Source: a virus
Taxonomy: Duplodnaviria; Heunggongvirae; Uroviricota; Caudoviricetes
Length of the DNA: 64,000 nucleotides
Reading direction: 5' to 3' (one strand)
Virus record (IMG/VR): IMGVR_UViG_3300021979_000001
Span: 2,948 to 66,947 of that record
The notes below the pieces were generated by a model. It ran no database searches. It worked only from the letters and a program-made list of their open reading frames with translations, and was not told the DNA's origin. Every line of letters starts with the position of its first letter. Positions within the stretch are counted from its first letter, which is position 1. Positions 48-15,779 of this stretch are shown in pieces. The position numbers were made by a program, and so were the translations under genes.

Positions 48-308
48 TTAATTATAATAACCATCCCCTTCCCCAAAACCATAACCGTGCCCATCCCCAA
101 TACCAGTGCCAATACCAGTGCCAATACCAATATCAATAATAAAACCATGACCATGACCATGACCAAAACCATAACCATGACCATCACTATGACCATCACT
201 ATGCCCATTCCCATGCCCCGAATCATCCGAAAAACCATGACCAAACCCATATGTCTCGTTATTGGTTATTAATGGTATTGAATAATATAAATTATAAGTT
301 GCAACCAT
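48..308 (-). CDS. Gly-X repeat small protein, subfamily A
   Basis: N-term MVATYNLYYSIPLITNNETYGFG; core with HG/DG/YG dipeptides and a (GIGT)3 block; AAAGG 9 nt upstream of ATG. Confidence 0.6.
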   Translation of the reverse strand: MVATYNLYYSIPLITNNETYGFGHGFSDDSGHGNGHSDGHSDGHGYGFGHGHGHGFIIDIGIGTGIGTGIGDGHGYGFGEGDGYYN

Positions 309-328
309 AATTGGTAACCTTTTGTTCG

Positions 329-547
329 TTAATTATAATAACCATCTTCATCTACATGACCAGACCCAAAACTAGAGCCAAGACCATATCCATGACCATA
401 ACCATCGCCAGGACCATCACCATTCCCCGAGCCATGACCAGACCCAAAACTAGAGCCATAATCATTACCAAAACCACGACCAAACCCATATGTCTCGTTA
501 TTGGTTATTAATGGTATTGAATAATATAAATTATAAGTTGCGACCAT
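329..547 (-). CDS. Gly-X repeat small protein, subfamily A
   Basis: start moved to ATG at 545-547 (MVATYNLYYSIPLITNNETYGFG); the track ORF extends upstream through the alternative frame of the neighbouring copy. Confidence 0.55.
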   Translation of the reverse strand: MVATYNLYYSIPLITNNETYGFGRGFGNDYGSSFGSGHGSGNGDGPGDGYGHGYGLGSSFGSGHVDEDGYYN

Positions 548-575
548 AATTGGTAACCTTTTGTCCTTTTGTCCT

Positions 576-809
576 TTAATCATAACCGTGTCCATAGCCA
601 TGACCATTTCCATTCCCAATCCCATTCCCACTCCCAAGCCCATACCCAAAACCATAACCATCGCTATCCCCATAGCCTTCGCCATAACCATTCCCATGAT
701 TTGAGCCATAACCAGAACCAGAACCAGACACCGTTCCACAATCATACCCATATGTCTCGTCATTGGTTATTAATGGCATCAAATAATATAAATTATATAT
801 TGTAACCAT
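576..809 (-). CDS. Gly-X repeat small protein, subfamily A
   Basis: N-term MVTIYNLYYLMPLITNDETYGYD; GYG/NG/SG core. Confidence 0.6.
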   Translation of the reverse strand: MVTIYNLYYLMPLITNDETYGYDCGTVSGSGSGYGSNHGNGYGEGYGDSDGYGFGYGLGSGNGIGNGNGHGYGHGYD

Positions 810-829
810 AACGGGTAACCTTTCTTTCT

Positions 830-1010
830 TTAACCATAGCCATCCCCATAATCAAACCCACGATCATACTCATGACACGACCTGGCCCGTCCCAAAACTA
901 GAGCCATATTCATTACCATGACCCGAACCATAACCATCATTAGGTGACGCATATTTAATATAATTTAATTTTATTTTATTTTATTTTATTTTATGTATAT
1001 ATTCATGATA
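830..1010 (-). pseudogene. decayed array member (subfamily B-like), coordinates approximate
   Basis: minus strand reads ATG AAT ATA TAC ATA AAA TAA (MNIYIK-stop) followed by an (AAAAT)n tract; the Gly-X-like tail remains downstream. Confidence 0.4.
965..996. repeat. (ATTTT)n microsatellite inside decayed array copy
   Basis: ttttattttattttattttatt visible at 966-995. Confidence 0.8.
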
Positions 1011-1087
1011 TGTTGTTCGAGTAAAACCAGAATCACTTATATTATAACTCAACTATTACATTATTGGGTAAAATCGTCTCCATCGAT

Positions 1088-1315
1088 TTAACCAAAACCA
1101 TGACCATAACCAAAACCATTTCCGTAACCGTCACCAACCCCATCACCATAACCATCCCCATAACCATAACCGTCACCATCTCCCTGACTATCCCCATAAC
1201 TATTGCCATAACCAAAACCATAACCTTCGCCATCACCATCGCCAGGACCATCACCATACTCGTCGTCATTGGTTATTAATGGTATCGAATAATATAAATT
1301 ATAAATTGTAACCAT
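1088..1315 (-). CDS. Gly-X repeat small protein, subfamily A
   Basis: N-term MVTIYNLYYSIPLITNDDEYGDG. Confidence 0.6.
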   Translation of the reverse strand: MVTIYNLYYSIPLITNDDEYGDGPGDGDGEGYGFGYGNSYGDSQGDGDGYGYGDGYGDGVGDGYGNGFGYGHGFG

Positions 1316-1335
1316 AACTGGTAACCTTTTGTTCT

Positions 1336-1566
1336 TTAATAATAACCATCCTCTGATCCACCCCCAAGCCCATCTCCATCACTATCCCCATCCCCATACC
1401 CATAGCCATCTCCATCCCCATAACCATGACCATCGCCATCCCCATAACCATAACCATCCCCAGACCCATAACCCAACACCGTTCCACAATCATGCCCATG
1501 CGTCTCGTCATTGGTTATTAATGGTATCGACGAATATAAAATATAAATTATAACCATAACTGGCAA
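1336..1566 (-). CDS. Gly-X repeat small protein, subfamily A
   Basis: N-term MPVMVIIYILYSSIPLITNDETHGHD; core of (GYGDGD)n. Confidence 0.55.
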   Translation of the reverse strand: MPVMVIIYILYSSIPLITNDETHGHDCGTVLGYGSGDGYGYGDGDGHGYGDGDGYGYGDGDSDGDGLGGGSEDGYY

Positions 1567-1577
1567 TCGTTTATCCT

Positions 1578-1847
1578 TTAATCATAACCCGCGCCATTCC
1601 CATGACCATTACCAATACCATGCCCACCGCCATAGCCACCACGCCCATTCCCTAAACCATGCCCATCACTATCCCCATAGCCAAACCCATTCCCATAATA
1701 TGAGACATAACCAGAACCAAAACCATTTCCAGAACCAGAACCATCACCATTCCCAATACCATCACCATTCCCCAAGCCATCACTATCATCATCGCCATCA
1801 TTGTATGAACTGGAATTGATATAATTTAATTTTATGGATATATTCAT
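1578..1847 (-). CDS. Gly-X repeat small protein, subfamily B
   Basis: N-term MNISIKLNYINSSSYNDGDDDSDG. Confidence 0.6.
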   Translation of the reverse strand: MNISIKLNYINSSSYNDGDDDSDGLGNGDGIGNGDGSGSGNGFGSGYVSYYGNGFGYGDSDGHGLGNGRGGYGGGHGIGNGHGNGAGYD

Positions 1848-1878
1848 AATTCACGCACCTGGTGAAAAATAAGTTGAA

Positions 1879-2190
<312 letters not shown>

Positions 2191-2220
2191 TAGATGTCGC
2201 TCCGGTAAAAATAAGTTAAA

Positions 2221-2442
2221 TCATTTATAACCATAACCATAACCATCGCCAGAACCATCTCCATTCCTCTCCCCAGAACCATCACCATGACCATCACCAT
2301 AACCAATACCAGAACCATTCCCATAGCCATGACTATAACCAGTCCCATGCACCGAACCATCCGCAAAACCATGACCAAACCCATATGTCTCGTCATTGGT
2401 TATTAATGGTATCGAATAATATAAAATATAAATTGTAACCAT
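2221..2442 (-). CDS. Gly-X repeat small protein, subfamily A
   Basis: start moved to MVTIYILYYSIPLITNDETYGFG. Confidence 0.55.
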   Translation of the reverse strand: MVTIYILYYSIPLITNDETYGFGHGFADGSVHGTGYSHGYGNGSGIGYGDGHGDGSGERNGDGSGDGYGYGYK

Positions 2443-2469
2443 AACTGATAATCTTTCTTTTTTAATCAT

Positions 2470-2650
2470 AACAATCCCAGCCCCAAAACCATGACCGGAA
2501 CTATCATTATAAACAATACCGGAACCAGAATCATAATCATAATCATAATCACAACCAGAGCCATCATAGCGTGACCAGGATTTGATATAATTTAATTTTA
2601 TTTTATAGAGATAATCAGGATATGTTGCTCCGGTAAAAACTGAATAAATT
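2470..2650 (-). pseudogene. decayed array member (B-like remnant), coordinates approximate
   Basis: Gly-X-like sequence and the 'ttgatataatttaattttat' leader remnant are present but the start codon is lost (ataatc instead of atattcat); no ORF in the Gly frame. Confidence 0.35.
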
Positions 2651-2675
2651 ATATTATAATTTAATTATTGCTTTA

Positions 2676-2903
2676 TTAGTAAAACTCCGATCCAGAACCA
2701 TGGCCCTTTCCATATTTCTTACCATATCCAGAACCAGAACCATAATCATACCCACACCCTTCACCATCGGCAGAACCATCGCGATTGCCATCCCCAGTGC
2801 CATACTCATTCCCATTGCCATGTCCATAGCTATATCCATATCCATGAACGGTGTCATGATCAGATATATTGATGTAAAATGACTGGGTTATGGATGATTT
2901 CAT
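2676..2903 (-). CDS. Gly-X repeat small protein, subfamily E
   Basis: likely start MKSSITQSFYINISDHDTVHGYG; the track ORF reads in frame through the spacer up to 2960, where the next copy's stop lies. Confidence 0.5.
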   Translation of the reverse strand: MKSSITQSFYINISDHDTVHGYGYSYGHGNGNEYGTGDGNRDGSADGEGCGYDYGSGSGYGKKYGKGHGSGSEFY

Positions 2904-2959
2904 GAATGGGTCATACCTGTAAAATGAATTATTCATAATGTAATCCAATTGTTGCATCA

Positions 2960-3163
2960 TTAGCTATGATCACGGCCATAACCATGCCCATCCCCATAAC
3001 CATCACCATCAACATGACCACTCGCATAGCCACGACCATAACCAGAATCAAGACCATCACCATAACCGAAATCACGACCAGAACCAGAACCATTCCCATA
3101 GCCATATGTCTCGTGATTGGTTATTAATGGTATCACATAATATAACTCATATATTGTAACCAT
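2960..3163 (-). CDS. Gly-X repeat small protein, subfamily A
   Basis: N-term MVTIYELYYVIPLITNHETYGYG. Confidence 0.6.
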   Translation of the reverse strand: MVTIYELYYVIPLITNHETYGYGNGSGSGRDFGYGDGLDSGYGRGYASGHVDGDGYGDGHGYGRDHS

Positions 3164-3183
3164 AACGGATGATCTTTCTTTTT

Positions 3184-3417
3184 TTAATTATAGTCCGCGC
3201 CATTCTCATGACCATCACCGCAACCATCACCATAAATATGACCATAACCATGACCATAACCATATCCATGACCATCACCATGACCGAAACCACGACCAGA
3301 ACCAGAACCATTCCCATAGCCATATGTCTCGTGATTGGTTATTAATGGTATCACATAATATAACTCATATATTGTAACCATACCTGTAACCATACCTGTA
3401 ACCATACCTGTAACCAT
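3184..3417 (-). CDS. Gly-X repeat small protein, subfamily A, with tandemly repeated start region
   Basis: N-term (MVTG)x3 then MVTIYELYYVIPLITNHETYG; a 12-nt unit repeated 4 times creates alternative in-frame ATGs. Confidence 0.55.
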   Translation of the reverse strand: MVTGMVTGMVTGMVTIYELYYVIPLITNHETYGYGNGSGSGRGFGHGDGHGYGYGHGYGHIYGDGCGDGHENGADYN

Positions 3418-3420
3418 ACC
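3371..3420. repeat. 12-nt tandem repeat (accatacctgta)x4 at the 5' end of an array gene
   Basis: taccatacctgtaaccatacctgtaaccatacctgtaaccatacc. Confidence 0.8.
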
Positions 3421-3437
3421 TGGTAACCTTTTGTTCG

Positions 3438-3641
3438 TTAATCATAACCCGCGCCATAGCCATGACCATTTCCATTCCCAAGCCCATTACCACTCCCAAG
3501 CCCTTTTCCAAAACAATAACCATCACTATCCCCATAGCCATCCCCATGACCATTCCCATGATTTGAACCATTCCCATAGCCATATGTCTCGTGATTGGTT
3601 ATTAATTGTATCGAATAATATAATTTATAAATTGTAACCAT
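3438..3641 (-). CDS. Gly-X repeat small protein, subfamily A
   Basis: N-term MVTIYKLYYSIQLITNHETYGYG. Confidence 0.6.
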   Translation of the reverse strand: MVTIYKLYYSIQLITNHETYGYGNGSNHGNGHGDGYGDSDGYCFGKGLGSGNGLGNGNGHGYGAGYD

Positions 3642-3661
3642 AACTGGTAACCTTTTGTTTT

Positions 3662-3754
3662 TTAATCATAATCCGCGCCATGACCATTTCCATGGCCTGA
3701 ATTCTCATAGATTGCCCAGGATTTGATATAATTTAATTTTATGGATATATTCAT
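3662..3754 (-). CDS. truncated mini-member (30 aa), subfamily B
   Basis: my translation: MNISIKLNYIKSWAIYENSGHGNGHGADYD-stop; intact ATG and stop but a very short core. Confidence 0.3.
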   Translation of the reverse strand: MNISIKLNYIKSWAIYENSGHGNGHGADYD

Positions 3755-3810
3755 AATTCACGCACCGGTAAAAACTGAATCACTTATATTATAATTCAAT
3801 TATTGATTGA

Positions 3811-4068
3811 TTAGTAAAACTCCGATCCAGAACCATGACCCTTTCCATATTTCTTACCATATCCAGAACCAAAACCATGTCCATAACCACAACCCTTGTC
3901 GGAACCGGAACCATTGCCATCATCGTATCCATCCCCAAAACCAGAACCAAAACCATCGCCATGACCATAACCATTTCCAGAACCATAACTGGAACCATAA
4001 CCAGAACCATCAAGTCCATTTCCTGGAAGATCGGATTTGTGATAATGTAACGTTATGGATATATTCAT
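3811..4068 (-). CDS. Gly-X repeat small protein, subfamily B
   Basis: likely start MNISITLHYHKSDLPGNG (ATG at 4066-4068); the track extends upstream in frame. Confidence 0.55.
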   Translation of the reverse strand: MNISITLHYHKSDLPGNGLDGSGYGSSYGSGNGYGHGDGFGSGFGDGYDDGNGSGSDKGCGYGHGFGSGYGKKYGKGHGSGSEFY

Positions 4069-4127
4069 GGTATGCCACCCCCGGTAAAACAAAGTATTCA
4101 TATTATAATTCACGTATTGCATCATTA

Positions 4128-4280
4128 TTAAAAACCATGACCCTTGTCAGAACTATAACCACAGCCATTATAATATATGCCATCACCATAATCAGAACCC
4201 CTTCCCATTCCCGAACCATAATTAGAATCATGTTCGGTCAGATCAGGATTTAGTTGACTTAATTTTATGGATGTATTCAT
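4128..4280 (-). CDS. Gly-X repeat small protein, subfamily B (short)
   Basis: likely start MNTSIKLSQLNPDLTEHDSNYG. Confidence 0.5.
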   Translation of the reverse strand: MNTSIKLSQLNPDLTEHDSNYGSGMGRGSDYGDGIYYNGCGYSSDKGHGF

Positions 4281-4336
4281 AATTATTATCACACCAGATA
4301 AAAAATAAATCACTATACTATAATTCAATTATTACA

Positions 4337-4564
4337 TCATTTGCTATGGCTCGAACCATGACCATCCCCATCCCCATACCCAGCACCAGCACCAGCACCA
4401 TCGTCATGACCACTACCATTGCCATAACCATCACCATCCCCAGAACCATAACCAAAACCATAACCATTACCATAATGATAAGCAGAACTATAAGCAGAAC
4501 CATCACCATAAACATTATAGGTTTGATCAGGTTCTTGGAAATAGGTTTCAATTGATGTATTCAT
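4337..4564 (-). CDS. Gly-X repeat small protein, subfamily C
   Basis: N-term MNTSIETYFQEPDQTYNVYG; TATAAATA lies 26 nt upstream on the coding strand. Confidence 0.6.
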   Translation of the reverse strand: MNTSIETYFQEPDQTYNVYGDGSAYSSAYHYGNGYGFGYGSGDGDGYGNGSGHDDGAGAGAGYGDGDGHGSSHSK

Positions 4565-4603
4565 AAGTAGCACACCAGGTAAAAACGAATTATTTATATT
4601 ATA
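4565..4603 (-). promoter_or_regulatory. conserved array spacer with TATAATATAAATA element (contains T4 late-promoter-like TATAAATA)
   Basis: minus strand reads tgctataatataaataattcgtttttacctggtgtgctactt then ATG. Confidence 0.4.
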
Positions 4604-4606
4604 GCA

Positions 4607-4882
4607 TCATTTGCTATGGCTCGCACCATTACCAAAACCATAACATGCTCCATGACCACTACCATGACCACGACCATTGCCATAACCATGACCATTGCCA
4701 TAACCATAACCATGACCATAACCATCCCCACAACCAGAGCCATCCCTAGACCCATCCCCGTCGTCATCCCCATCCCCATCGCTATAACCCTCCCCATCGC
4801 CAGGACCAGAGCCATGACCAAAACCATAAATATTATCGGGTTGATCAGGTTCTTGGAAATAGGTTTCAATCGATGTATTCAT
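4607..4882 (-). CDS. Gly-X repeat small protein, subfamily C
   Basis: N-term MNTSIETYFQEPDQPDNIYGFG. Confidence 0.6.
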   Translation of the reverse strand: MNTSIETYFQEPDQPDNIYGFGHGSGPGDGEGYSDGDGDDDGDGSRDGSGCGDGYGHGYGYGNGHGYGNGRGHGSGHGACYGFGNGASHSK

Positions 4883-4924
4883 AAGTAGCACACCAGGTAA
4901 AAACGAATTATTTATATTATAGCA
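4883..4924 (-). promoter_or_regulatory. conserved array spacer with TATAATATAAATA element
   Basis: identical to the 4565-4603 spacer. Confidence 0.4.
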
Positions 4925-5182
4925 TCATTTGCTATGGCTCGCACCATTACCATCACCATCCCCATCACCATTCCCTCTACCATACTCAATACCAAAACCA
5001 GTCCCAAAACCATGACCATTGCCATAACCATCACCATAACCATCCCCATTACCAGCCCCATCACCATAACCATAACCATAACCATAACCCTCCCCATCGC
5101 CATGACCAGAACCATGTCCATAACCATAAATATTATCGGGTTGATCAGGTTCTTGGAAATATGTTTCAATTGATGTATTCAT
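4925..5182 (-). CDS. Gly-X repeat small protein, subfamily C
   Basis: N-term MNTSIETYFQEPDQPDNIYGYG. Confidence 0.6.
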   Translation of the reverse strand: MNTSIETYFQEPDQPDNIYGYGHGSGHGDGEGYGYGYGYGDGAGNGDGYGDGYGNGHGFGTGFGIEYGRGNGDGDGDGNGASHSK

Positions 5183-5234
5183 AGTAGCACACCAGGTAAA
5201 AATGAATTATTTGTATTATAATTCAAGTATTGCA

Positions 5235-5519
5235 TCATTTTCTAATACCACGATTGCTGCCATATCTTCTGCCATATCCAAACGTATTACTAACCCTAAA
5301 CCCATTACCATTGCCATAACCATCACCAAAACCATGACCATAACCATCTCCCTCCCCATCCCCATCGCCAGAACCATCGGCAGAACCATCGCGATTGCCA
5401 TCCCCATAGCCATCCCCAGAACCATCCCCAGAACCATCCCCAGAACCATCACCATACATAAAATCATCGTTCGTTAGATGGGAATTAACGCAATAATACA
5501 ATTCAATCGAAATATTCAT
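5235..5519 (-). CDS. Gly-X repeat small protein, subfamily D
   Basis: N-term MNISIELYYCVNSHLTNDDFMYG; core of (GDGSGD)n. Confidence 0.6.
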   Translation of the reverse strand: MNISIELYYCVNSHLTNDDFMYGDGSGDGSGDGSGDGYGDGNRDGSADGSGDGDGEGDGYGHGFGDGYGNGNGFRVSNTFGYGRRYGSNRGIRK

Positions 5520-5622
5520 AATTAGCACACCGAGTAAAAATAAGTTAAATCATTTCCAACCACTACCACGACCATGACTAGTAGCCAGAGTTAGAGTCAA
5601 ATCCATATCCATATCCATATCA

Positions 5623-5844
5623 CTATCCATCCCCATCCCCAAACCCATGCGCGGAACCATCCCTATAATCATACCCATAATCATACCCATAATCATACCC
5701 ATACCCAAAACCATACCCATACCCCTCACCATCGGCAGAACCATCGCGATTGCCATCCCCAGAGCCATAGTCATAGTCGTATCCATGATAGGTTTCAGGA
5801 ACATATATATTGATGTAAAACGACTGGTTTATGTATGGTTTCAT
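5623..5844 (-). CDS. Gly-X repeat small protein, subfamily E
   Basis: N-term MKPYINQSFYINIYVPETYHGYDYDYG. Confidence 0.6.
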   Translation of the reverse strand: MKPYINQSFYINIYVPETYHGYDYDYGSGDGNRDGSADGEGYGYGFGYGYDYGYDYGYDYRDGSAHGFGDGDG

Positions 5845-5898
5845 TAATAGGTTACACCTGTAAAAAATAAATCACTATACTATAATTAATTTATTGCA

Positions 5899-6147
5899 TC
5901 ATTTGTTATGGCTCTCACCATTACCAAATCCATAACATGTTCCATTCCCACTACCACGACCACGACCATTGCTATAACCATTACCATTGCCATAGCCATC
6001 ACCAAAACCATGACCATAATCATCTCCCTCCCCATCCCCATCGCCAGAACCATCCCCATCGCCAGGACCAGAGTCATGACCATACATAAAATCATCGTTC
6101 GTTAGATGGGAATTAACACAATAATACAATTCAATCGAAGTATTCAT
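5899..6147 (-). CDS. Gly-X repeat small protein, subfamily D
   Basis: N-term MNTSIELYYCVNSHLTNDDFMYG. Confidence 0.6.
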   Translation of the reverse strand: MNTSIELYYCVNSHLTNDDFMYGHDSGPGDGDGSGDGDGEGDDYGHGFGDGYGNGNGYSNGRGRGSGNGTCYGFGNGESHNK

Positions 6148-6177
6148 AATTCGCACACCGGGTAAAAATAAGTTAAA

Positions 6178-6417
6178 TTATCCACACCCATGACCACGAC
6201 CATGACTAGAGCCAGAGTCAGAGCCAAATCCAGAGCCATAGCTATGTCCAACACCAAATCCAAAACCAAACCCACCATGATAGTCAGAACCAGACCCATC
6301 CCCGGAACCATCCCCATCCCCATAACCATGACCATTCCCAGAGCCATATTCGTATCCATGATAGGTTTCAGGAGCATATATATTGATGTAAAATGACTGG
6401 TTTATGTATGGTTTCAT
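6178..6417 (-). CDS. Gly-X repeat small protein, subfamily E
   Basis: N-term MKPYINQSFYINIYAPETYHGYEYG. Confidence 0.6.
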   Translation of the reverse strand: MKPYINQSFYINIYAPETYHGYEYGSGNGHGYGDGDGSGDGSGSDYHGGFGFGFGVGHSYGSGFGSDSGSSHGRGHGCG

Positions 6418-6471
6418 TAATAGGTCACATCTGTAAAAAATAAATCACTATACTATAATTCAATTATTGCA

Positions 6472-6780
6472 TCATTTGCTAATACCACGATTGCTGCCAT
6501 ATCCAAAACCTGCTCCATTACCACTACCATGACCACGGCCATTATCATAACCACGGCCATTACCATAACCATGACCAGAACCAATCCCATTACCATCTCC
6601 ATTGCCACCACCATAACCATGCGCAGAACCATCACCATAATCATACCCATACCCCGAACCATCGGCAGAACCATCGCGATTGCCATCCCCAGAGCCATCC
6701 CCAGAACCATCACCATACATAAAATCATCGTTCGTTAGATGGGAATTAACGCAATAATACGGTTCAATCGAAGTATTCAT
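6472..6780 (-). CDS. Gly-X repeat small protein, subfamily D
   Basis: N-term MNTSIEPYYCVNSHLTNDDFMYG. Confidence 0.6.
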   Translation of the reverse strand: MNTSIEPYYCVNSHLTNDDFMYGDGSGDGSGDGNRDGSADGSGYGYDYGDGSAHGYGGGNGDGNGIGSGHGYGNGRGYDNGRGHGSGNGAGFGYGSNRGISK

Positions 6781-6810
6781 AATTAGCATACCGGGTAAAA
6801 ATAAGTTAAA

Positions 6811-7074
6811 TTATTCACACCCATGACCACGACCATAACCATAACCATAACTATCCTCAAACCCATTCCCATTCCCAAGCCCTCTCCCAAAACCATGACC
6901 TTCACCATTCCCCGAACCATACCCATTCCCAGAACCATCGCCATCGCCACCACTATGACCATCACCAGACCCATCCCCATAACCATGACCATCCCCAGAG
7001 CCATAGTCGTATCCATGATAGGTTTCAGGAATATATATATTGATGTAAAACGATTGGTTTATGTATGGTTTCAT
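6811..7074 (-). CDS. Gly-X repeat small protein, subfamily E
   Basis: N-term MKPYINQSFYINIYIPETYHGYDYG. Confidence 0.6.
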   Translation of the reverse strand: MKPYINQSFYINIYIPETYHGYDYGSGDGHGYGDGSGDGHSGGDGDGSGNGYGSGNGEGHGFGRGLGNGNGFEDSYGYGYGRGHGCE

Positions 7075-7127
7075 TAATAGGTTACACCTGTAAAAAATAA
7101 ATCACTTACTATAATTAATTTATTGCA

Positions 7128-7382
7128 TCATTTGTTATGGCTCGCACCATTACCAAATCCATAACATGCTCCATTACCACTACCACGACCACGACCATTG
7201 CTATAACCATCACCATCACCATCGCCATCACCAAACCCATGACCATAACCATCCCCAGAGCCATCCCCATCGCCAAAACCATCACCATACCCGTCATCAT
7301 CACCATAACCATGACCTGATGTATAATAGATTTCATGATCAGATGGATTGATACCAAAATACTGACTTATGTATGGTTTCAT
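7128..7382 (-). CDS. Gly-X repeat small protein, subfamily E variant
   Basis: N-term MKPYISQYFGINPSDHEIYYTSGHGYG; near-identical to the copy at 7437..7691. Confidence 0.6.
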   Translation of the reverse strand: MKPYISQYFGINPSDHEIYYTSGHGYGDDDGYGDGFGDGDGSGDGYGHGFGDGDGDGDGYSNGRGRGSGNGACYGFGNGASHNK

Positions 7383-7436
7383 TAATAGGTCACACATGTA
7401 AAAAATAAATCACTATACTATAATTCATTTATTGCA

Positions 7437-7691
7437 TCATTTGTTATGGCTCTCACCATTACCAAATCCATAACATGCTCCATTACCACTACCATGACTA
7501 CCACCAGAAACATAACCATAACCATGACCATAACCATCCCCACAACCAGAGCCATCCCTATCCCCATCCCCAAAACCATACCCATAACCATCACCATACC
7601 CGTCATCATCACCATAACCATGACCTGATGTATAATAGATTTCATGATCAGATGGATTGATACCAAAATACTGACTTATGTATGGTTTCAT
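7437..7691 (-). CDS. Gly-X repeat small protein, subfamily E variant
   Basis: N-term MKPYISQYFGINPSDHEIYYTSGHGYG. Confidence 0.6.
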   Translation of the reverse strand: MKPYISQYFGINPSDHEIYYTSGHGYGDDDGYGDGYGYGFGDGDRDGSGCGDGYGHGYGYVSGGSHGSGNGACYGFGNGESHNK

Positions 7692-7763
7692 TAATAGGTC
7701 ACTCATGTAAAAAATAAATCACTCATAATATTATTCAATTGTTGCGTTATTAATGAAAAATCA

Positions 7764-7883
7764 TCAATGACCCTTTCTATCCGCATCACCATAACCATTG
7801 CCATAGTTTGAGTCAAAACCAGAAACATTTTCAGATATATCATGATCATGGTAGTGGTAATACAATTCAATCGATATGTTCAT
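7764..7883 (-). CDS. truncated mini-member (39 aa), subfamily D-like
   Basis: my translation: MNISIELYYHYHDHDISENVSGFDSNYGNGYGDADRKGH-stop. Confidence 0.3.
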   Translation of the reverse strand: MNISIELYYHYHDHDISENVSGFDSNYGNGYGDADRKGH

Positions 7884-7943
7884 AATAGGCCACTGCCAAT
7901 AATATAATAAAATAAACCATTACTATTTCAATTGGTGGAACCA

Positions 7944-8144
7944 CTAACCTTCGCGACCATGACCTCTGCCTCGGCCCCTTCCAGTTTCATAACCAGGCCC
8001 ATCCCCGGAGCCAAGACCATACTCAAATCCAAGCCAGTTACCATCACCATCGCCATAACCATTGCCCTGCTCGCCACCACTCACGAAATCCACGTTCGTT
8101 AGATGGGAATTAACGCAATAATACAATTCAATTGATGTATTCAT
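7944..8144 (-). CDS. Gly-X repeat small protein, subfamily D
   Basis: N-term MNTSIELYYCVNSHLTNVDFVSGGEQG. Confidence 0.55.
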   Translation of the reverse strand: MNTSIELYYCVNSHLTNVDFVSGGEQGNGYGDGDGNWLGFEYGLGSGDGPGYETGRGRGRGHGREG

Positions 8145-8201
8145 AATTAACACACCAGGTAAAAAACAAAGTATTCATCTTATAATTCAATTATTGCCTC
8201 A

Positions 8202-8459
8202 TTAACCATACCCGGAGCCATTTACATACCCATCCCCATATCCCTCGCCAATCCCAAATCCACCCCCCGCACCATCCCCTTCCAAATAGCCGTTTCCATA
8301 ACCGTAACCATAGCCATCGTCATACCTAATAATACCTGAACCATTACCAGAACCATCACCATAACCAGCCTCATAACCATACGTAAAACCGAAACCGGAA
8401 TCATAATCATATTTGTGACAATCTGTTTCGTGATAATTTAATTTTATAGATGAACTCAT
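8202..8459 (-). CDS. Gly-X repeat small protein (B-like, divergent)
   Basis: likely start MSSSIKLNYHETDCHKYDYDSGFG. Confidence 0.5.
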   Translation of the reverse strand: MSSSIKLNYHETDCHKYDYDSGFGFTYGYEAGYGDGSGNGSGIIRYDDGYGYGYGNGYLEGDGAGGGFGIGEGYGDGYVNGSGYG

Positions 8460-8520
8460 GATAGGACATACATGCAAAAATAAACCATTACTAATTCAAT
8501 TGTTGTGCTATTAACTACGA

Positions 8521-8763
8521 TCATGCACCCCCCTGACTATATCCATCGCCATACCCATAACCAAAAACTTTACCATCATTATCCCCATACCCATTACCAT
8601 AGCCAGAGCCATCCGCATCATCATCATCATCATTGGTAATATACCAAGCATTATTAATATTATATCCCGAACCATGACCATAACCAAAACCATCCCCTTC
8701 TATATAACCAGTTTTATTATTTTCAGATTCGATATAAAAAGATTGTTTTATCGATACTGGCAT
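8521..8763 (-). CDS. Gly-X repeat small protein (E-like, divergent)
   Basis: likely start MPVSIKQSFYIESENNKTGYIEGDG; internal DDDDD run. Confidence 0.5.
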   Translation of the reverse strand: MPVSIKQSFYIESENNKTGYIEGDGFGYGHGSGYNINNAWYITNDDDDDADGSGYGNGYGDNDGKVFGYGYGDGYSQGGA

Positions 8764-8813
8764 GCTAAATCCCATCAAGTAATAAAAAAGGTGTTACGTA
8801 ACTACGATTATAT

Positions 8814-8918
8814 TTAAAACACTGCGCCATCGCCATTACCATGACCATCACCGAGTGCATAATCGGGTTTATGATAATCTGTATTAATGTAAAACAACTG
8901 GTTTATGTATATGGTCAT
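8814..8918 (-). CDS. truncated mini-member (34 aa), subfamily E-like
   Basis: my translation: MTIYINQLFYINTDYHKPDYALGDGHGNGDGAVF-stop. Confidence 0.3.
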   Translation of the reverse strand: MTIYINQLFYINTDYHKPDYALGDGHGNGDGAVF

Positions 8919-8957
8919 GAATAGGCCACACCTGTGAAAATCAAACCACTAATATTA

Positions 8958-9248
8958 TTATGCACTTAAACCTTCCCCATAAATATTGCTATAACTATTG
9001 CCATTCCAGTTACCGGAACCATCGCCATAACCATCCCCATAACTATTGCAATTCCTGTTACCGTGACCATCTCCCTCACCATAACCATAACCATTCCCAA
9101 AATCATCTCCATCACTCTCCCCAGAGTCATCCCCATAACCGGAACAATAACCATTCACATATCCATAACCAAGACCATGACCATGACCATGATCGGTTTC
9201 ATGATCATCTGCATGTATGCAAAAATACTGATTTATGTATGGGGTCAT
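8958..9248 (-). CDS. Gly-X repeat small protein, subfamily E
   Basis: N-term MTPYINQYFCIHADDHETDHGHGHG. Confidence 0.6.
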   Translation of the reverse strand: MTPYINQYFCIHADDHETDHGHGHGLGYGYVNGYCSGYGDDSGESDGDDFGNGYGYGEGDGHGNRNCNSYGDGYGDGSGNWNGNSYSNIYGEGLSA

Positions 9249-9299
9249 AATTGGTCACACCTATAAAAATAAACACTAAACGTTTTTTTGATGGTATCA

Positions 9300-9575
9300 T
9301 TAGTTATAATTACAGCCATCACTATCTCCATAACCAAAACCATAACCAAAACCATCACCATCACCATAACCATAACCATGACTAACACCAGAGCCAGAGC
9401 CATCCCCATCCCCATCTCCCTGCCCATCGCCATCGCCATCGCCCTGTCCATTACCATAACCATGACCAAAACCATTCCCATTCCCATAACCATGACCCGA
9501 GCCATTACCATGACCGGAACCGGTTTCATGATCATCTGCATGTATGCAAAAATACTGATTTATGGGTAGATTCAT
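9300..9575 (-). CDS. Gly-X repeat small protein, subfamily E
   Basis: N-term MNLPINQYFCIHADDHETGSGHGNG; core of (GDGDGQ)n. Confidence 0.6.
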   Translation of the reverse strand: MNLPINQYFCIHADDHETGSGHGNGSGHGYGNGNGFGHGYGNGQGDGDGDGQGDGDGDGSGSGVSHGYGYGDGDGFGYGFGYGDSDGCNYN

Positions 9576-9627
9576 GATCGGTCACACCTGTAAAAATAAA
9601 CACTAAACTTTTTTTTGATGGGTATCA

Positions 9628-9882
9628 TTAGTTATAATTACAGCCATCACCATCTCCATAACCAAAACCATCACCATAACCACCGCCATGACTAACGCCA
9701 GAGCCAGAGCCATCACCATCTTCATAACCAAAACCATAACCAAAACCATCACCATAACTATAACCATGATCCCCATCACCAAAACCATTCCCATAACCAT
9801 GACCCGAGCCATTACCATGACCGGAACCGGTTTCATGATCATCTGCATGTATGCAAAAATACTGATTTATGGGTAGATTCAT
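9628..9882 (-). CDS. Gly-X repeat small protein, subfamily E
   Basis: same leader as the copy at 9300..9575. Confidence 0.6.
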   Translation of the reverse strand: MNLPINQYFCIHADDHETGSGHGNGSGHGYGNGFGDGDHGYSYGDGFGYGFGYEDGDGSGSGVSHGGGYGDGFGYGDGDGCNYN

Positions 9883-9937
9883 GATCGGTCACGCCTGTAA
9901 AACGAATTATTAATATTGTAATTCAAGTGTTGCATCA

Positions 9938-10153
9938 TTAGTTATAATTACAGCCATAGCCAGCACCATTGCCATTGCCATTGCCATTGCCGTAACCGTC
10001 GCCAGCCCCATCGCCATGACTAACACCAGAGCCAGAGCCATCACCATCCCCATCTCCCTGCCCATCGCCATCACCCGAGCCATTACCATGACCGGAACCG
10101 GTTTCATGATCATCTGCATGTATGCAAAAATACTGATTTATGGGTAGATTCAT
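9938..10153 (-). CDS. Gly-X repeat small protein, subfamily E
   Basis: same leader as the copy at 9300..9575; shorter core. Confidence 0.6.
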   Translation of the reverse strand: MNLPINQYFCIHADDHETGSGHGNGSGDGDGQGDGDGDGSGSGVSHGDGAGDGYGNGNGNGNGAGYGCNYN

Positions 10154-10202
10154 GATCGGTCACACCTGTAAAAATAAACCACTAAAATTTTTATTTACTG
10201 TA

Positions 10203-10457
10203 TCATTGGTTATGATCGCGACCATCCCCTTCCCCAAAACCATCCCCATCTCCATTCCCCAAGCCATTGCTTCGACCATAACCATCACCATGACCAGAAC
10301 CAGCATTAATCCCATAACCAGACCCACACCCGGAGCCATAACCCTCCCCGTAACCATAGCCATACGCATTACCATGACCATGACCATAACCGAAACCATA
10401 CTCGGTTTTATGATAATTTGTATTAATGCAAAACATTTGGTTTATATATGTGGTCAT
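10203..10457 (-). CDS. Gly-X repeat small protein, subfamily E
   Basis: likely start MTTYINQMFCINTNYHKTEYGFG; the track extends upstream in frame. Confidence 0.5.
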   Translation of the reverse strand: MTTYINQMFCINTNYHKTEYGFGYGHGHGNAYGYGYGEGYGSGCGSGYGINAGSGHGDGYGRSNGLGNGDGDGFGEGDGRDHNQ

Positions 10458-10513
10458 GAATAGGTCACGCCTGTAAAACGAATTATTAATATTATAATTC
10501 AAGTGTTGCATCA

Positions 10514-10771
10514 TTAGTTATAATTACAGCCATAGCCAGCACCATTGCCATTGCCATTGCCGTAACCGTCGCCATCCCCATAGCCATTGCCAAAACCATA
10601 ACCATCCCCATAATCATACCCATAACCGGAGCCACTGCCAAATCCATAACCATCCCCATCATTATCCCCATAACCGGAGCCATTACCATGACCATACTCA
10701 TTATCATGACCATACGTGTTTTCATGATAATATGTATTGATGTAAAATGACTGGGTTATGGGTGGGTTCAT
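10514..10771 (-). CDS. Gly-X repeat small protein, subfamily E
   Basis: N-term MNPPITQSFYINTYYHENTYGHD. Confidence 0.6.
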   Translation of the reverse strand: MNPPITQSFYINTYYHENTYGHDNEYGHGNGSGYGDNDGDGYGFGSGSGYGYDYGDGYGFGNGYGDGDGYGNGNGNGAGYGCNYN

Positions 10772-10819
10772 GATCGGTCACGCCTGTAGAAATAAACCAC
10801 TAAATTTTTATTGACTGTA

Positions 10820-11086
10820 TCATTGGCTATGATCGCGACCATTCCCATAACCATTCCCAGAGCCATAATTATTTCCATTCCCAGAGCAAGAGCCATACCC
10901 AGAGCCATAATTATTCCCGTAACCATTACCATGCCCCGTAGCATAACCGAAACCATCGCTCGAACCATCTCCAAAACCATCCCCAGTGCCATACTCATTC
11001 CCATTGCCATGTCCATAGCCATATCCATGAACGGTGTCATGATCAGATGTATTGATGTAAAATGACTGGGTTATGGATGATTTCAT
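10820..11086 (-). CDS. Gly-X repeat small protein, subfamily E
   Basis: likely start MKSSITQSFYINTSDHDTVHGYG; paralog of the copy at 2676..2903. Confidence 0.5.
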   Translation of the reverse strand: MKSSITQSFYINTSDHDTVHGYGYGHGNGNEYGTGDGFGDGSSDGFGYATGHGNGYGNNYGSGYGSCSGNGNNYGSGNGYGNGRDHSQ

Positions 11087-11142
11087 GAATGGGTCACACC
11101 TGTAAAATGAATTATTCATAATGTAATCCAATTGTTGCATCA

Positions 11143-11388
11143 TTAGCTATGATCACGGCCATAACCATGACCACTCTCATAGCCATAACCATCAACATGA
11201 CCACTCGCATAGCCACGACCATAACCAGAATCAAGACCATCACCATGACCATAACCACGACCAGAGCCAAGACCAGAGCCACGACCAGAGCCAAGACCAG
11301 AGCCAAGACCATAACCATTACCATGACCGGAACCGGTTTTATGTGTATCGGCATTGATGTAAAACGACTGGTCTATAGATTGATTCAT
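11143..11388 (-). CDS. Gly-X repeat small protein, subfamily E
   Basis: N-term MNQSIDQSFYINADTHKTGSGHG; core of (GLGSGRGS)n. Confidence 0.6.
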   Translation of the reverse strand: MNQSIDQSFYINADTHKTGSGHGNGYGLGSGLGSGRGSGLGSGRGYGHGDGLDSGYGRGYASGHVDGYGYESGHGYGRDHS

Positions 11389-11446
11389 GAAACGGTCTTA
11401 CCTGTAAAAATGAAATCACTTATATTGTAATTCAATTGTTGCATTA

Positions 11447-11698
11447 TTAGCTATTATCATGACCATTCCCATTGCCATAACCATCCCCCGCACTATCCCC
11501 ATAGCTGCCGCCATAACCATAACCACGACCATTACCATAACCATAGCCGCCGCCATAACCATAACCATGATCGGTGCCAACACCATAACCAGAACCATAG
11601 CCATGCTCATTGCCATGACCATAATCAACGCCGGGTCCATTATCGATTTCATGATCATGTGTGTTGATGTAAAACGACTGGTGTATGGATTGGTTCAT
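11447..11698 (-). CDS. Gly-X repeat small protein, subfamily E
   Basis: N-term MNQSIHQSFYINTHDHEIDNGPG; near-identical leader and flanks to the copy at 11757..12026. Confidence 0.6.
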   Translation of the reverse strand: MNQSIHQSFYINTHDHEIDNGPGVDYGHGNEHGYGSGYGVGTDHGYGYGGGYGYGNGRGYGYGGSYGDSAGDGYGNGNGHDNS

Positions 11699-11756
11699 GA
11701 AACGGTCTTACCTGTAAAAATGAAATCACTTATATTGTAATTCAATTGTTGCATTA

Positions 11757-12026
11757 TTAGCTATTATCATGACCATTCCCATTCCCATTCCCATTGCCAT
11801 CCCCATCCCCCGCCCCCGCACTATCCCCATAGCCGCCGCCATAACCATAACAATGCGCGTCCCCAAATCCAGAGCCAAGACCATAACCATAACCATGATT
11901 GGTGCCAACACCATAACCAGAACCATAGCCATGCTCATTGCCATGACCATAATCAACGCCGGGTCCATTATCGATTTCATGATCATGTGTGTTGATGTAA
12001 AACGACTGGTGTATGGATTGGTTCAT
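11757..12026 (-). CDS. Gly-X repeat small protein, subfamily E
   Basis: N-term MNQSIHQSFYINTHDHEIDNGPG. Confidence 0.6.
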   Translation of the reverse strand: MNQSIHQSFYINTHDHEIDNGPGVDYGHGNEHGYGSGYGVGTNHGYGYGLGSGFGDAHCYGYGGGYGDSAGAGDGDGNGNGNGNGHDNS

Positions 12027-12089
12027 GAAACGGTCTTACCTGTAAAAACGAAACCACTTATGTCGTAATTCAATTGTTGCATTATTAGC

Positions 12090-12190
12090 TATTATCATGA
12101 CCATTCCCATTGCCATGCCCATTACAATAACCAAAACAATATTCATTGTCATTTTGGTTTAGATTAGTATTGATGTAAAAAATGTTGGAT
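12090..12190 (-). pseudogene. array member remnant (N-terminus lost), coordinates approximate
   Basis: a short Gly-X stretch (NDNEYCFGYCNGHGNGNGHDNS-stop) preceded by in-frame stops; the conserved spacer is still present. Confidence 0.3.
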
Positions 12191-12270
12191 TATGGTGTGT
12201 TCACAGTAATTCGTTCAATCATGTATAAAATAACTAAATTATGCCTATTATAACTTAAATTGTTGCATCA

Positions 12271-12513
12271 TTAACCATACCCCGATCCATTACTATGATC
12301 TGTCAGATAACCATCACCATCACCAAACGCGGAACCATCACCACTTCCATCGCCATGGCCGTAACCATGACCACGTGCAGACCCAAACCGATCACCTAGA
12401 CTATACTTTTTATCATCATTATACTCATTGCCAGCACCATAACCAAAACCATAACCAGAAAACTTTTCGGATTGATCATATTGGGTATAATTTAATTTTA
12501 TGGATGTATTCAT
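12271..12513 (-). CDS. Gly-X repeat small protein, subfamily B
   Basis: N-term MNTSIKLNYTQYDQSEKFSGYG. Confidence 0.6.
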   Translation of the reverse strand: MNTSIKLNYTQYDQSEKFSGYGFGYGAGNEYNDDKKYSLGDRFGSARGHGYGHGDGSGDGSAFGDGDGYLTDHSNGSGYG

Positions 12514-12616
12514 GATATGTTCTAGTAAATAATGAACGAAAAAATTAATTTACATTTCAATGTCAGTATTATCCATCACCATCACATATTCATGACCTGG
12601 CCTGTTTGTTGTATCA

Positions 12617-12907
12617 TTAATTATGATCACTGCCATTCCCATTACCATAACCAAAACCATGACCATTCCCAAGCCCTCTCCCAAAACCATGACCTTCACC
12701 ATTCCCCGAACCATACCCATTCCCAATACCATCGCCATCGCCATCACTATGACCATCACCAGACCCATCGCCAAAACCATAACCATTACTATCGCCATAA
12801 CCCAAAACGCCCCTAATACCACCACCATGCTTAGATGTTAATCTTTTGTAATATACATGTTTGGAAAGATCAGATGTATGGTAATTTAATTTTATGGATA
12901 GTTTCAT
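12617..12907 (-). CDS. Gly-X repeat small protein, subfamily B
   Basis: N-term MKLSIKLNYHTSDLSKHVYY. Confidence 0.6.
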   Translation of the reverse strand: MKLSIKLNYHTSDLSKHVYYKRLTSKHGGGIRGVLGYGDSNGYGFGDGSGDGHSDGDGDGIGNGYGSGNGEGHGFGRGLGNGHGFGYGNGNGSDHN

Positions 12908-12969
12908 GATAGGACCATCCCTGGTAATAAAAAATCACTAATATTTCAATTGGCAGTATCAATTAATCA

Positions 12970-13185
12970 TTAACTACAGTCATGCCCTGGACTCTCACCA
13001 TAACCATAACCATTCCCAACACCATTGCCATCCCCATCACCATAACCAGAACCGAAACCGTCCCCCTCATTATAACCATTCCCATTACCAGAACCGAAAC
13101 CATCGCCATTAGCAAAAATAGAACCATAAAGATTTCTCTTTAGGTCCGCATTGTATAAATAAAACAAATTAATTGGTGTATTCAT
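12970..13185 (-). CDS. Gly-X repeat small protein (divergent)
   Basis: N-term MNTPINLFYLYNADLKRNLYG. Confidence 0.55.
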   Translation of the reverse strand: MNTPINLFYLYNADLKRNLYGSIFANGDGFGSGNGNGYNEGDGFGSGYGDGDGNGVGNGYGYGESPGHDCS

Positions 13186-13243
13186 GATCTGCTTCCTAGG
13201 TAATAAAATTGCTCATTCATGTTATACTTCAATTAATGCATCA

Positions 13244-13465
13244 TTAGTCAAAAAAACTAACGGAACCATTCCCATAGCCATAACTAGAACCATTGTCCAA
13301 ACCCTCGTTATAATCTTTTCCAGAACTATAACCATTTCCATAATCATAACCAAACCCGGCCCCATAGCCAAAACACCTGTAACTGGTATCTGCACCGGAA
13401 CCGAAACCAGAATCATTTATGGATAGATCAGACTCTTGATGATTTAATTTTACGAATATAGTCAT
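13244..13465 (-). CDS. Gly-X repeat small protein (divergent)
   Basis: N-term MTIFVKLNHQESDLSINDSGFG. Confidence 0.55.
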   Translation of the reverse strand: MTIFVKLNHQESDLSINDSGFGSGADTSYRCFGYGAGFGYDYGNGYSSGKDYNEGLDNGSSYGYGNGSVSFFD

Positions 13466-13517
13466 TATATGCCATATAAGGTAATAAGTTTAATAAATCA
13501 TATTATAATTGGTTGCA

Positions 13518-13745
13518 TCAATCACCATGACCCTTACCATCTCCAAAACCATACCCGAAACTATAACCAAACACCGAACCAATACCCTCGCCAACACCAA
13601 TACGGAAATCATTACCATCCCCATTCCCATAACCAAAACCATAACTTTCCCCAGTATAATAACCCGAACTCGGTTCATTACCCAACCACCCATCGGGTGT
13701 TAGGTCGGTGTTATAACAATAATACATTTTTATTGGCGTATTCAT
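13518..13745 (-). CDS. Gly-X repeat small protein (divergent)
   Basis: likely start MNTPIKMYYCYNTDLTPDGW. Confidence 0.5.
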   Translation of the reverse strand: MNTPIKMYYCYNTDLTPDGWLGNEPSSGYYTGESYGFGYGNGDGNDFRIGVGEGIGSVFGYSFGYGFGDGKGHGD

Positions 13746-13812
13746 AATTATTTTACCGAGTGACAAAAATAAGTTAACTAAATTGCATTACAACTTAGTG
13801 GTATCATTAATA

Positions 13813-14043: not shown

Positions 14044-14096
14044 AATTATCATCTCGGTAAAAAATGAAAGTTCAAATCACATATATTTCAATTATT

Positions 14097-14290: not shown

Positions 14291-14313
14291 ATAATAAGAG
14301 CCATTTGAATAAT

Positions 14314-14550: not shown

Positions 14551-14581
14551 AATTGTTTCACCAAGTAAAAAATAAGTTAAA

Positions 14582-15770: not shown

Positions 15771-15779
15771 AATTAATAC

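Follow-up and report, generated by a model that had tools for sequence, protein, structure and literature searches.

A tandem array of glycine-repeat genes with a conserved N-terminal peptide in a large phage, and its candidate partnership with an Sm-like DUF6948 protein

Introduction

Short conserved N-termini and glycine-containing motifs characterize several described peptide and protein families. Triceptides carry aromatic-x-x motifs and spliceotides x-Tyr-Gly motifs, while the internal proteins of phage T4 carry an N-terminal capsid-targeting sequence. In the eukaryotic Sm family, SmD1 has a (Gly-Arg)n tail, and SmB and LSm4 have RGG tails. A bacterial precedent is provided by the Hfq of Acinetobacter, an Sm-family protein with a repetitive glycine-rich C-terminus (PMC5663733). 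Here we describe a 64,000-nucleotide (nt) stretch of a tailed-phage genome (IMG/VR record IMGVR_UViG_3300021979_000001, positions 2,948 to 66,947; hereafter the “window”), which contains a tandem array of small genes. Their products join a conserved N-terminal peptide—hereafter called the “leader”—to a glycine-alternating core, (Gly-X)n.

Comparison of gene content across phage contigs indicates that a two-gene phage cassette, widespread but undescribed, has in this array undergone an extreme expansion of its second gene. The first of the two genes encodes a DUF6948 protein, predicted to be a small Sm/LSm-fold protein, to which the leader may dock the glycine-repeat proteins.

Results

The array and its protein products

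The window contains 53 intact small genes of 64-103 amino acids (aa) in tandem on the minus strand, nine of which, all in this orientation, make up the range 4337-7074 (Table 1). Two contigs (L001 and L171) overlap the left end of the window with 99.9-100% identity and carry at least 8 further members to the left of base 1, which brings the array to at least 61 members over more than 21 kb. Between these near-identical contigs of the same phage population, one 71-aa member is present or absent (L001 1714-1929 versus L171 7411-7430), which represents a copy-number polymorphism.

Across the 53 cores, the residue fractions are G 0.40, D 0.11, Y 0.11, S 0.09, N 0.07, H 0.05 and F 0.035, and the alternation of glycine is evident from 933 GxG triplets as against 22 GG dipeptides. 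The net charge is acidic in every core, with a median of -5. In an AlphaFold2 model of the member at 5899..6147, built with the family alignment, the mean predicted local distance difference test (pLDDT) score is 42.7; residues 17-82 score below 50, and the first 10 residues average 65. The array proteins are predicted to be intrinsically disordered, and the first 10 residues are the best-predicted part, still with low confidence.

The scans of the array members and of the open reading frames (ORFs) between 17827 and 26879 against Pfam, NCBIfam and PHROGs revealed DUF6948, glucosaminidase and radical S-adenosylmethionine (SAM) proteins as the only informative families, and no curated family in these collections covers the array proteins. 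A 45-column leader profile, searched against 1.84 billion representatives, recovered only its own members, the distant array P0008/L049 and two Gly-rich proteins that are unrelated. The homology search with a single array member had the same lineage-restricted outcome, the related-locus search with an array member as the query yielded no confirmed relative, and cultured phages gave no megablast match to a 20-kb part of the window. They gave none in tblastn with an array member either, a search in which the low-complexity filter masks the query. As judged from these searches, the leader family is lineage-restricted.

Conservation of the leader

In order to describe the leader, we used 47 distinct sequences, with a one-residue gap placed for the MV[TA][TI]Y subfamily. 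Three positions are near-invariant: M1 (47/47), I5 (45/47, 4.0 bits) and Y/F9 (46/47, 3.2 bits). Six others are biased, namely [NK]2 (34/47), [SP]4 (27/47, plus Y in 8), [LQ]7 (27/47), [YC]10 (32/47), [IV]11 (22/47) and N12 (20/47), while columns 13-20 hold just 1.1-1.7 bits. Likewise, the mean pairwise identity is 0.30 in columns 2-12 versus 0.135 in columns 13-20. The working consensus from this alignment is M-[NK]-x-[SPY]-I-x-[LQ]-x-[YF]-[YC]-[IV]-N; several members begin, for example, with MNTSIELYYCVN, MKPYINQSFYIN or MVTIYNLYYSIPLI. The five N-termini quoted in the first-pass annotation are all present on the minus strand. Its longer consensus for all subfamilies agrees with the biases at the nine positions listed above, but was over-specified, and the terminal D-[HL]-x-x-[DN] is not general.

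The hydrophobic fractions in columns 5-12 are 0.98, 0.24, 0.47, 0.58, 0.98, 0.78, 0.56 and 0.22. They peak at columns 5 and 9, and the invariant pair is thus spaced i/i+4; an aromatic/hydrophobic cluster occupies positions 8-11 throughout the family. The leader had been proposed to form an amphipathic β-strand, with hydrophobic residues alternating at i and i+2. This alternation is clear only in some subfamilies, such as S-I-E-L-Y-Y-C-V-N, but the pair fixed family-wide is i/i+4, and the AlphaFold2 model contains no confident strand.

Does the conserved signal reside in the protein or in the nucleic acid? The near-invariant Ile5 is encoded by ATA, ATT or ATC, position 9 by TAT, TAC, TTT or TTC, and Ser4 by all four TCN codons, and the per-nucleotide information falls at the third positions of codons 2, 5 and 6. 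Upstream of the ATG, a Shine-Dalgarno (SD)-like GGTG is located at -13 to -9 and a T-run at -21 to -18. The members end in ordinary stops (30 TAA, 19 TGA and 4 TAG), a mix like that in the remainder of the window, and the cores use all four Gly codons (GGT 0.54, GGG 0.22, GGC 0.16 and GGA 0.08). Neither an Rfam match nor a consensus RNA structure was found around the start. The codon variation at fixed residues, the third-position drop, the SD-like element, the normal stops, the four Gly codons and the lack of an RNA family or fold together exclude conservation at the DNA level only, the outcome that the first-pass annotation had named as fatal to its claim. As these codon patterns indicate, the leader is kept by selection on the protein.

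Two further candidates were rejected. For a leader RNA or promoter, besides the RNA results above, no excess of sigma-70-like sites was detected, and the motif TGAATTAYARTAT, with 15 copies in the array intergenic spacers and 18 in the window versus 1.65 expected, lies outside the leader coding sequence. This motif may be a phage-specific promoter. Stop-codon recoding, with the array read as a polyprotein, is incompatible with the mixed stops, the further stops that often follow them and the distribution of the members over all three frames.

The ORFs could still be by-products of a repeat acting as DNA or RNA, such as (GGNNNN)n structures, a leader RNA or a promoter array, given that several frames are open across the repeats on both strands, that the GC skew is strong (-0.36 to -0.51 across window positions 1-18000) and that an intergenic motif recurs 15 times. 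However, only in the Gly-X frame does every unit combine a conserved ATG and N-terminus with an SD-like GGTG and a regular stop. Moreover, the array draws on all four Gly codons, phages with different Gly codons (GGC, GGT or GGG) retain the amino-acid pattern, and a natural in-frame fusion to DUF6948 exists (described below). With the negative RNA results, these features make a non-coding origin scarcely credible.

Another explanation grants the coding function but assigns no binding role to the leader, which would be constant through recent duplication, gene conversion and the need for an A+T-rich, unstructured initiation region in front of repeat mRNA that is rich in G. Codons 1-12 are strongly A+T-rich, the leaders of close paralogs are identical even at synonymous sites while their cores differ, and the upstream intergenic units, including TGAATTAYARTAT, are duplicated along with the genes. 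The last pattern but one probably reflects recombination and slippage driven by the repeats of the cores, or else gene conversion acting on the 5′ ends, and misalignment in the repetitive cores probably inflates the apparent core differences. On the other hand, Ile5 and Tyr/Phe9 are fixed across distant subfamilies (~30% leader identity) while their codons vary, the third codon positions are more variable than the first and second, and A+T-richness alone would not fix two specific residues. We therefore consider the absence of any binding role unlikely.

The DUF6948 gene and the two-gene cassette

The window contains exactly one DUF6948 gene. The fold predicted for its product is an N-terminal helix followed by a five-stranded bent β-sheet, the arrangement of the Sm fold, and the invariant residues include R41, R43, N44, E45 and R67, together with other polar ones. 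As in the cassettes of other phages, this gene is located upstream of the repeat genes on the same strand, and each repeat protein is built, after a short N-terminal segment, mostly of glycine alternating with Tyr, Asp, Ser or Asn.

The linkage was examined from both sides. Small (Gly-Tyr/Asp/Ser/Asn)n ORFs, as a class, occur commonly in viral contigs: at least 120 loci were selected with a DNA pattern encoding GYGxGYGxGYG, and DUF6948 was sought with a profile built from G-poor envelopes and cleaned of Gly-rich columns. Among the loci listed with enough upstream flank, 74 of 82 contain a DUF6948-like ORF, which in 68 is immediately upstream on the same strand; none was detected in 727 kb of control phage loci. 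Reciprocally, in 55 loci chosen by DUF6948 homology alone, and thereby unbiased as to the repeat, a (Gly-X)n gene is present at the DUF6948 stop in 49, or in 49 of the 51 with enough downstream flank; four of the six exceptions have at most 50 nt of downstream sequence. The overlap between the two genes is 14 nt in 31 of 47 loci, the start of the second gene usually falling within the final 14 nt of the first, and one locus encodes a true in-frame DUF6948-(Gly-X)n fusion (L077, 4912-5622). In addition, the N-terminus types of the repeat proteins track the DUF6948 subtypes across phages. Most cassettes have one repeat gene and a few have 2-5; at the extreme, this phage stands far apart from them with at least 61.

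Each single-copy (Gly-X)n gene uses one codon for nearly all of its glycines (L051-L230, e.g. L194, L190, L172, L195 and L187): GGC even in phages at 33-38% GC, and GGT or GGG elsewhere. The use of a single Gly codon per gene suggests recent growth by hexanucleotide slippage, and the four Gly codons in the window array suggest older, diverged copies. Some DUF6948-linked repeat proteins (L082, L091, L098, L111, L121, L135 and similar) are longer, 190-290 aa. In these, the (Gly-X)n stretch separates a ‘K-x-F-L’ type segment at the N-terminus from a structured domain at the C-terminus, an arrangement suggesting that the repeat can serve larger proteins as a linker.

The genes found beside the cassette in 25 of the 55 loci chosen by DUF6948 homology encode initiators of replication, helicase loaders, recombinases, methylases, ParB-like nucleases and the small terminase. 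Among cultured phages, the cassette is carried by the Pectobacterium phages Taid, Ymer and Abuela, where it lies beside Erf, exonuclease VIII and SSB; in Taid (PQ008975), its two genes occupy 23616-24014 and 23375-23632. In a prophage it lies beside an ANT/pRha antirepressor gene, and in a bacterial-genome contig the DUF6948 gene is downstream of RecT.

These surroundings bear on whether the N-terminus might instead direct the proteins to the prohead, where a prohead protease would cut at an acidic residue before the core (PE|T, DE|T, HE|T or HE|I). In several subfamilies, Glu or Asp followed by Thr or Ile does directly precede the repeat. However, this acidic residue is not conserved across subfamilies (columns 17-19, 1.3-1.7 bits), no prohead protease or capsid/head gene was found near the array among the ORFs scanned, the single-copy relatives reside in replication/recombination regions rather than in structural modules, and an acidic cargo is atypical for DNA-filled heads. 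Such virion targeting is thus quite improbable.

A different possibility is that the N-terminus, rich in Ile, Tyr, Asn and Gln, nucleates self-assembly as a steric-zipper-like β-strand, generating fibrils, gels or condensates without the Sm-like protein. Leaders such as YINQSFYINIY, SIELYYCVN and TIYNLYYSIPLI are rich in β-branched, aromatic and amide residues, and the cores resemble Gly/Tyr low-complexity segments. The distant array recovered by the leader profile, in another phage contig (L049, 2961-4439, plus strand), is also compatible with self-assembly. Its seven tandem (Gly-X)n genes, with overlapping stops and starts, encode proteins that are conserved and hydrophobic at both ends (N-terminus MFYSILQxYSxIRIYNT, C-terminus ISLYKILI); an RNA ligase and a metallophosphatase are encoded upstream, and no DUF6948 was detected within the 8.3 kb of sequence. 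Nevertheless, no confident strand was predicted by AlphaFold2, acidic cores would oppose packing, and the near-obligate DUF6948 linkage would be left unexplained. Self-assembly by the leader alone therefore seems unlikely.

A docking handle for an Sm-like partner

The first-pass annotation had also compared the leader to peptides that dock into an assembly by strand addition, and docking onto an assembly is compatible with our observations. We tentatively favour the reading that the leader is a short docking motif, by which all the variant glycine-repeat tails would be tethered to a single shared partner; the most plausible candidate is the Sm-like DUF6948 protein. This docking has, in our estimation, somewhat less than an even chance of being correct. 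It is favoured because the leader is the sole non-repetitive hydrophobic piece of a disordered acidic chain, because the sole conserved partner gene encodes an Sm-fold protein that is usually co-translated and once fused, and because the N-terminus types follow the DUF6948 subtypes. The complex would resemble the Sm-family proteins with fused glycine-rich tails and would act on RNA or single-stranded DNA in the infected cell, where the acidic tails would perhaps tune binding or promote condensates.

Several points weigh against docking to DUF6948. The leader–DUF6948 contact, like all downstream function, is something we infer, and the stoichiometry is odd, with one Sm-like gene per more than 60 tail genes. 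Part of the leader constancy may derive from gene conversion, in keeping with the synonymous-site identity among close paralogs, and the tracking of N-terminus with DUF6948 subtype may reflect the joint inheritance of neighbours. Here, moreover, the array and the DUF6948 gene do not adjoin; where other cassettes usually have a 14-nt overlap, this phage has a terminator-like hairpin and an orphan ORF between the two. The L049 array, with its similar N-terminus and no DUF6948 detected in its contig, is a further difficulty. Finally, when the window leader was compared with the N-termini of the single-copy cassettes, which are shorter (median 11 aa), the mean position-specific scoring matrix (PSSM) score was -10, as compared to -14 for shuffles and +21 for self. 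As this is weakly better than the shuffles, we do not claim homology between the two.

A more ambitious extension of the docking reading is conceivable but distinctly doubtful. In this extension, the N-terminal peptide common to more than 60 interchangeable, acidic, Gly/Tyr-rich disordered tails would let each of them plug into one viral Sm-like ring, as a split and massively diversified counterpart of the Sm and LSm proteins with low-complexity tails. During infection, the phage would use this system to construct or adjust RNA-protein assemblies or condensates, or against host factors, and the one-plus-one version would be a widespread, unrecognised module of temperate and virulent phages.

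The radical SAM module

The first-pass annotation had likened the array proteins to precursors of peptides that are ribosomally synthesized and modified post-translationally (RiPPs), such as the prochlorosins. The N-terminus would then be a leader read by a maturase, for example a radical SAM/SPASM-like protein, and the cores would be modified (cyclophane formation at aromatic-x-x, or splicing at x-Tyr-Gly) and released. In its architecture alone, the array does look like a set of RiPP precursors, with short ORFs, a conserved N-terminus of ~12 aa and many variable cores. Tyr-Gly, His-Gly and Phe-Gly are abundant in the cores, and the window encodes two radical SAM proteins with C-terminal Cys clusters.

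The comparative linkage points elsewhere. One radical SAM gene (21579-22667) has homologs in 46 IMG/VR phage loci, and in none of them is a (Gly-X)n gene present within 10 kb of the homolog. In 37-38 of the 46 loci, it is accompanied by homologs of 22936-23637, 23609-24349, 24568-25470 and 25467-26123. Judged from this gene content, the five-gene radical SAM module is separate from, and unrelated to, the glycine-repeat array; in the window, two plus-strand genes lie between them. The module, consisting of the radical SAM/SPASM-like gene and four ORFs (21579-26123, minus strand), is also present in contigs of 216-519 kb. In other phages, at more than 100 loci, the related (Gly-X)n genes adjoin the Sm-like gene, and among the 25 neighbour families listed for the 25 DUF6948 loci described above, which belong to replication and recombination, no peptide maturase or other RiPP enzyme is included.

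In both radical SAM proteins, the CxxxCxxC motif is located near residue 19, leaving no room for an N-terminal recognition domain. Their best NCBIfam matches are generic (twitch or tungsten-cofactor maturase), at 50-54 bits versus cut-offs of 170-380, and neither reaches an NCBIfam peptide-maturase cut-off. No PqqD or RiPP recognition element was matched among the scanned proteins (17.8-33.6 kb plus selected ORFs elsewhere in the window), no LanM-like protein was found in the scans of window proteins, and the NCBIfam scan of three array members matched neither Nif11, NHLP nor another RiPP precursor family. The sulfotransferase-like protein of the first-pass annotation was not identified, and the ORFs in 22936-26879 are without Pfam, NCBIfam or PHROG matches. 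The array lacks a co-located, co-conserved modifying enzyme, and specifically the dedicated XyeB- or PlpX-type radical SAM/SPASM maturase that adjoins triceptide and spliceotide precursors; no protease or transporter was seen adjoining it, and 31 of the 53 cores are free of Cys. The prochlorosin-like proposal is not supported by these findings, and we regard a RiPP function of any kind as very improbable.

Other features of the window

The coordinates of the array and its surroundings are collected in Table 1. The Zn-finger-like ORF lies between the array members 18349-18594 and 17534-17728. The only database relative of the orphan 161-aa ORF is from the same phage; its protein begins with MNLYHGYYSLMND and loosely resembles the array leaders (MNLYIKLNY..., ...LYYSIP...).

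Table 1. Positions of the array, of the members in the range 4337-7074 and of neighbouring features
Feature	Position	Strand	Remarks
Tandem array	48..18594	-	N-terminal peptide, variable polar linker, (Gly-X)n core, X = Y, D, S, N, H or F
Member, 75 aa	4337..4564	-	Leader MNTSIETYFQEPDQ; codons 1-12 = 4529-4564
Member, 91 aa	4607..4882	-	Leader MNTSIETYFQEPDQ, 4847-4882
Member, 85 aa	4925..5182	-	Leader MNTSIETYFQEPDQ, 5147-5182
Member, 94 aa	5235..5519	-	Leader MNISIELYYCVNSHLTNDD, 5484-5519
Member, 73 aa	5623..5844	-	Leader MKPYINQSFYINIY, 5809-5844
Member, 82 aa	5899..6147	-	Leader MNTSIELYYCVNSHLTNDD, 6112-6147; AlphaFold2 model made
Member, 79 aa	6178..6417	-	Leader MKPYINQSFYINIY, 6382-6417
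Member, 102 aa	6472..6780	-	Leader MNTSIEPYYCVNSHLTNDD, 6745-6780
Member, 87 aa	6811..7074	-	Leader MKPYINQSFYINIY, 7039-7074; SD-like AGGTG ~10 nt upstream, in 7075-7098
Degenerate array copies (examples)	3662-3754, 4128-4328, 7764-7883, 8814-8918		
Motif TGAATTAYARTAT	within 1039-16293, e.g. 6450-6462, 7415-7427, 11422-11434	-	~30-40 nt upstream of starts
Cys-rich Zn-finger-like ORF, 128 aa	17827-18213	-	Inside array, unrelated to it; weak DksA-like PHROG matches
Orphan ORF, 161 aa	18662..19147	-	Between DUF6948 and first array member; no family match
Intrinsic-terminator-like hairpin	19174..19203	-	13-bp stem then T-run; just 3′ of DUF6948 gene
DUF6948 (PF22253) protein, 131 aa, predicted Sm/LSm fold	19269..19664	-	Upstream of array, same strand

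Elsewhere, the window encodes the phage proteins ribonucleotide reductase, DnaB-type helicase, primase and glucosaminidase, and exact protein matches assign it to a metagenomic contig of 457,165 bp. The large subunit of ribonucleotide reductase is divided between two plus-strand ORFs, 43934-45673 and 45818-47092, which are 145 nt apart and match the N- and C-terminal halves of phrog_84; the gene may contain an intron, retain the remnant of an intein or be genuinely split. Two convergent genes encode an EcoRV-like restriction endonuclease (27034-27771, plus strand) and a K+ channel carrying an RCK domain (27743-28828, minus strand), and an SPFH/Band 7 protein is encoded at 31290-32687 on the minus strand; the three are unusual phage cargo. 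The ORF at 57340-58641 (minus strand) weakly matches the phage amidoligase phrog_2443; it and the radical SAM genes could be part of a pathway that modifies nucleotides or DNA, rather than one of peptide chemistry.

Discussion

The open-access literature yielded nothing relevant on DUF6948, GYG-type repeat strings, phage glycine-rich arrays or phage Sm-like proteins. No system described in that literature corresponds to the cassette or, in particular, to its expanded form of at least 61 genes with a dedicated N-terminal peptide. If our reading is true, phages commonly carry an unnamed two-component module, consisting of an Sm-fold protein and a separate glycine/tyrosine low-complexity protein. 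The module is found in more than 100 of the viral contigs sampled and in the cultured Pectobacterium phages, with both genes annotated as ‘hypothetical protein’, and this phage devotes at least 21 kb, ~5% of its 457-kb genome, to at least 61 variants of the second component. The reading would also open testable questions: whether Sm-type scaffolds with prion-like or FUS-like tails exist in bacterial viruses, which role such tails play in the bacterial cell, and why one lineage diversified them. In addition, the locus illustrates a risk of misannotation, as arrays of short genes with a constant N-terminus near radical SAM genes are easily called RiPP clusters, an assignment against which the comparative linkage argues here.

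How does this locus compare with the known systems? Like the T4 internal proteins, the array proteins are small, with a conserved N-terminal peptide of ~10 residues, divergent bodies and, in some subfamilies, an acidic residue at the junction. They differ in the lack of conservation of this junction residue and in having bodies made of acidic glycine repeats; in addition, the ORFs scanned include no linked protease or head genes, and the single-copy relatives reside in early replication regions. The radical-SAM-modified repeat peptides share with the array the Tyr-Gly-x, His-Gly-x and Phe-Gly-x motifs throughout the cores, and radical SAM/SPASM-like genes are present in the window. In contrast to the triceptide and spliceotide systems, however, these genes are not co-conserved with the repeats, and their products have no recognition domain and score far below the NCBIfam maturase cut-offs. 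The prochlorosins, with many ProcA and one ProcM, offer the parallel of many paralogous short genes with a constant N-terminus and a hypervariable C-terminus. Nevertheless, the array has neither a linked LanM or other maturase nor a Nif11/NHLP leader, most of its cores are Cys-free, its genes are in tandem, and its conserved neighbour is an Sm-fold protein.

The closest parallel is with the Sm/LSm proteins that carry glycine-rich tails. DUF6948 has no detectable sequence similarity to Sm or Hfq, and its likeness to them lies in the predicted fold. While the described tails belong to the Sm-family protein itself, the phage tail is normally a separate polypeptide, encoded by the overlapping downstream gene. 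Moreover, the phage tails are acidic and aromatic, composed of Tyr, Asp, Ser, Asn and His, rather than Arg-rich, and this phage encodes more than 60 versions of them, every one headed by an N-terminal peptide of its own.

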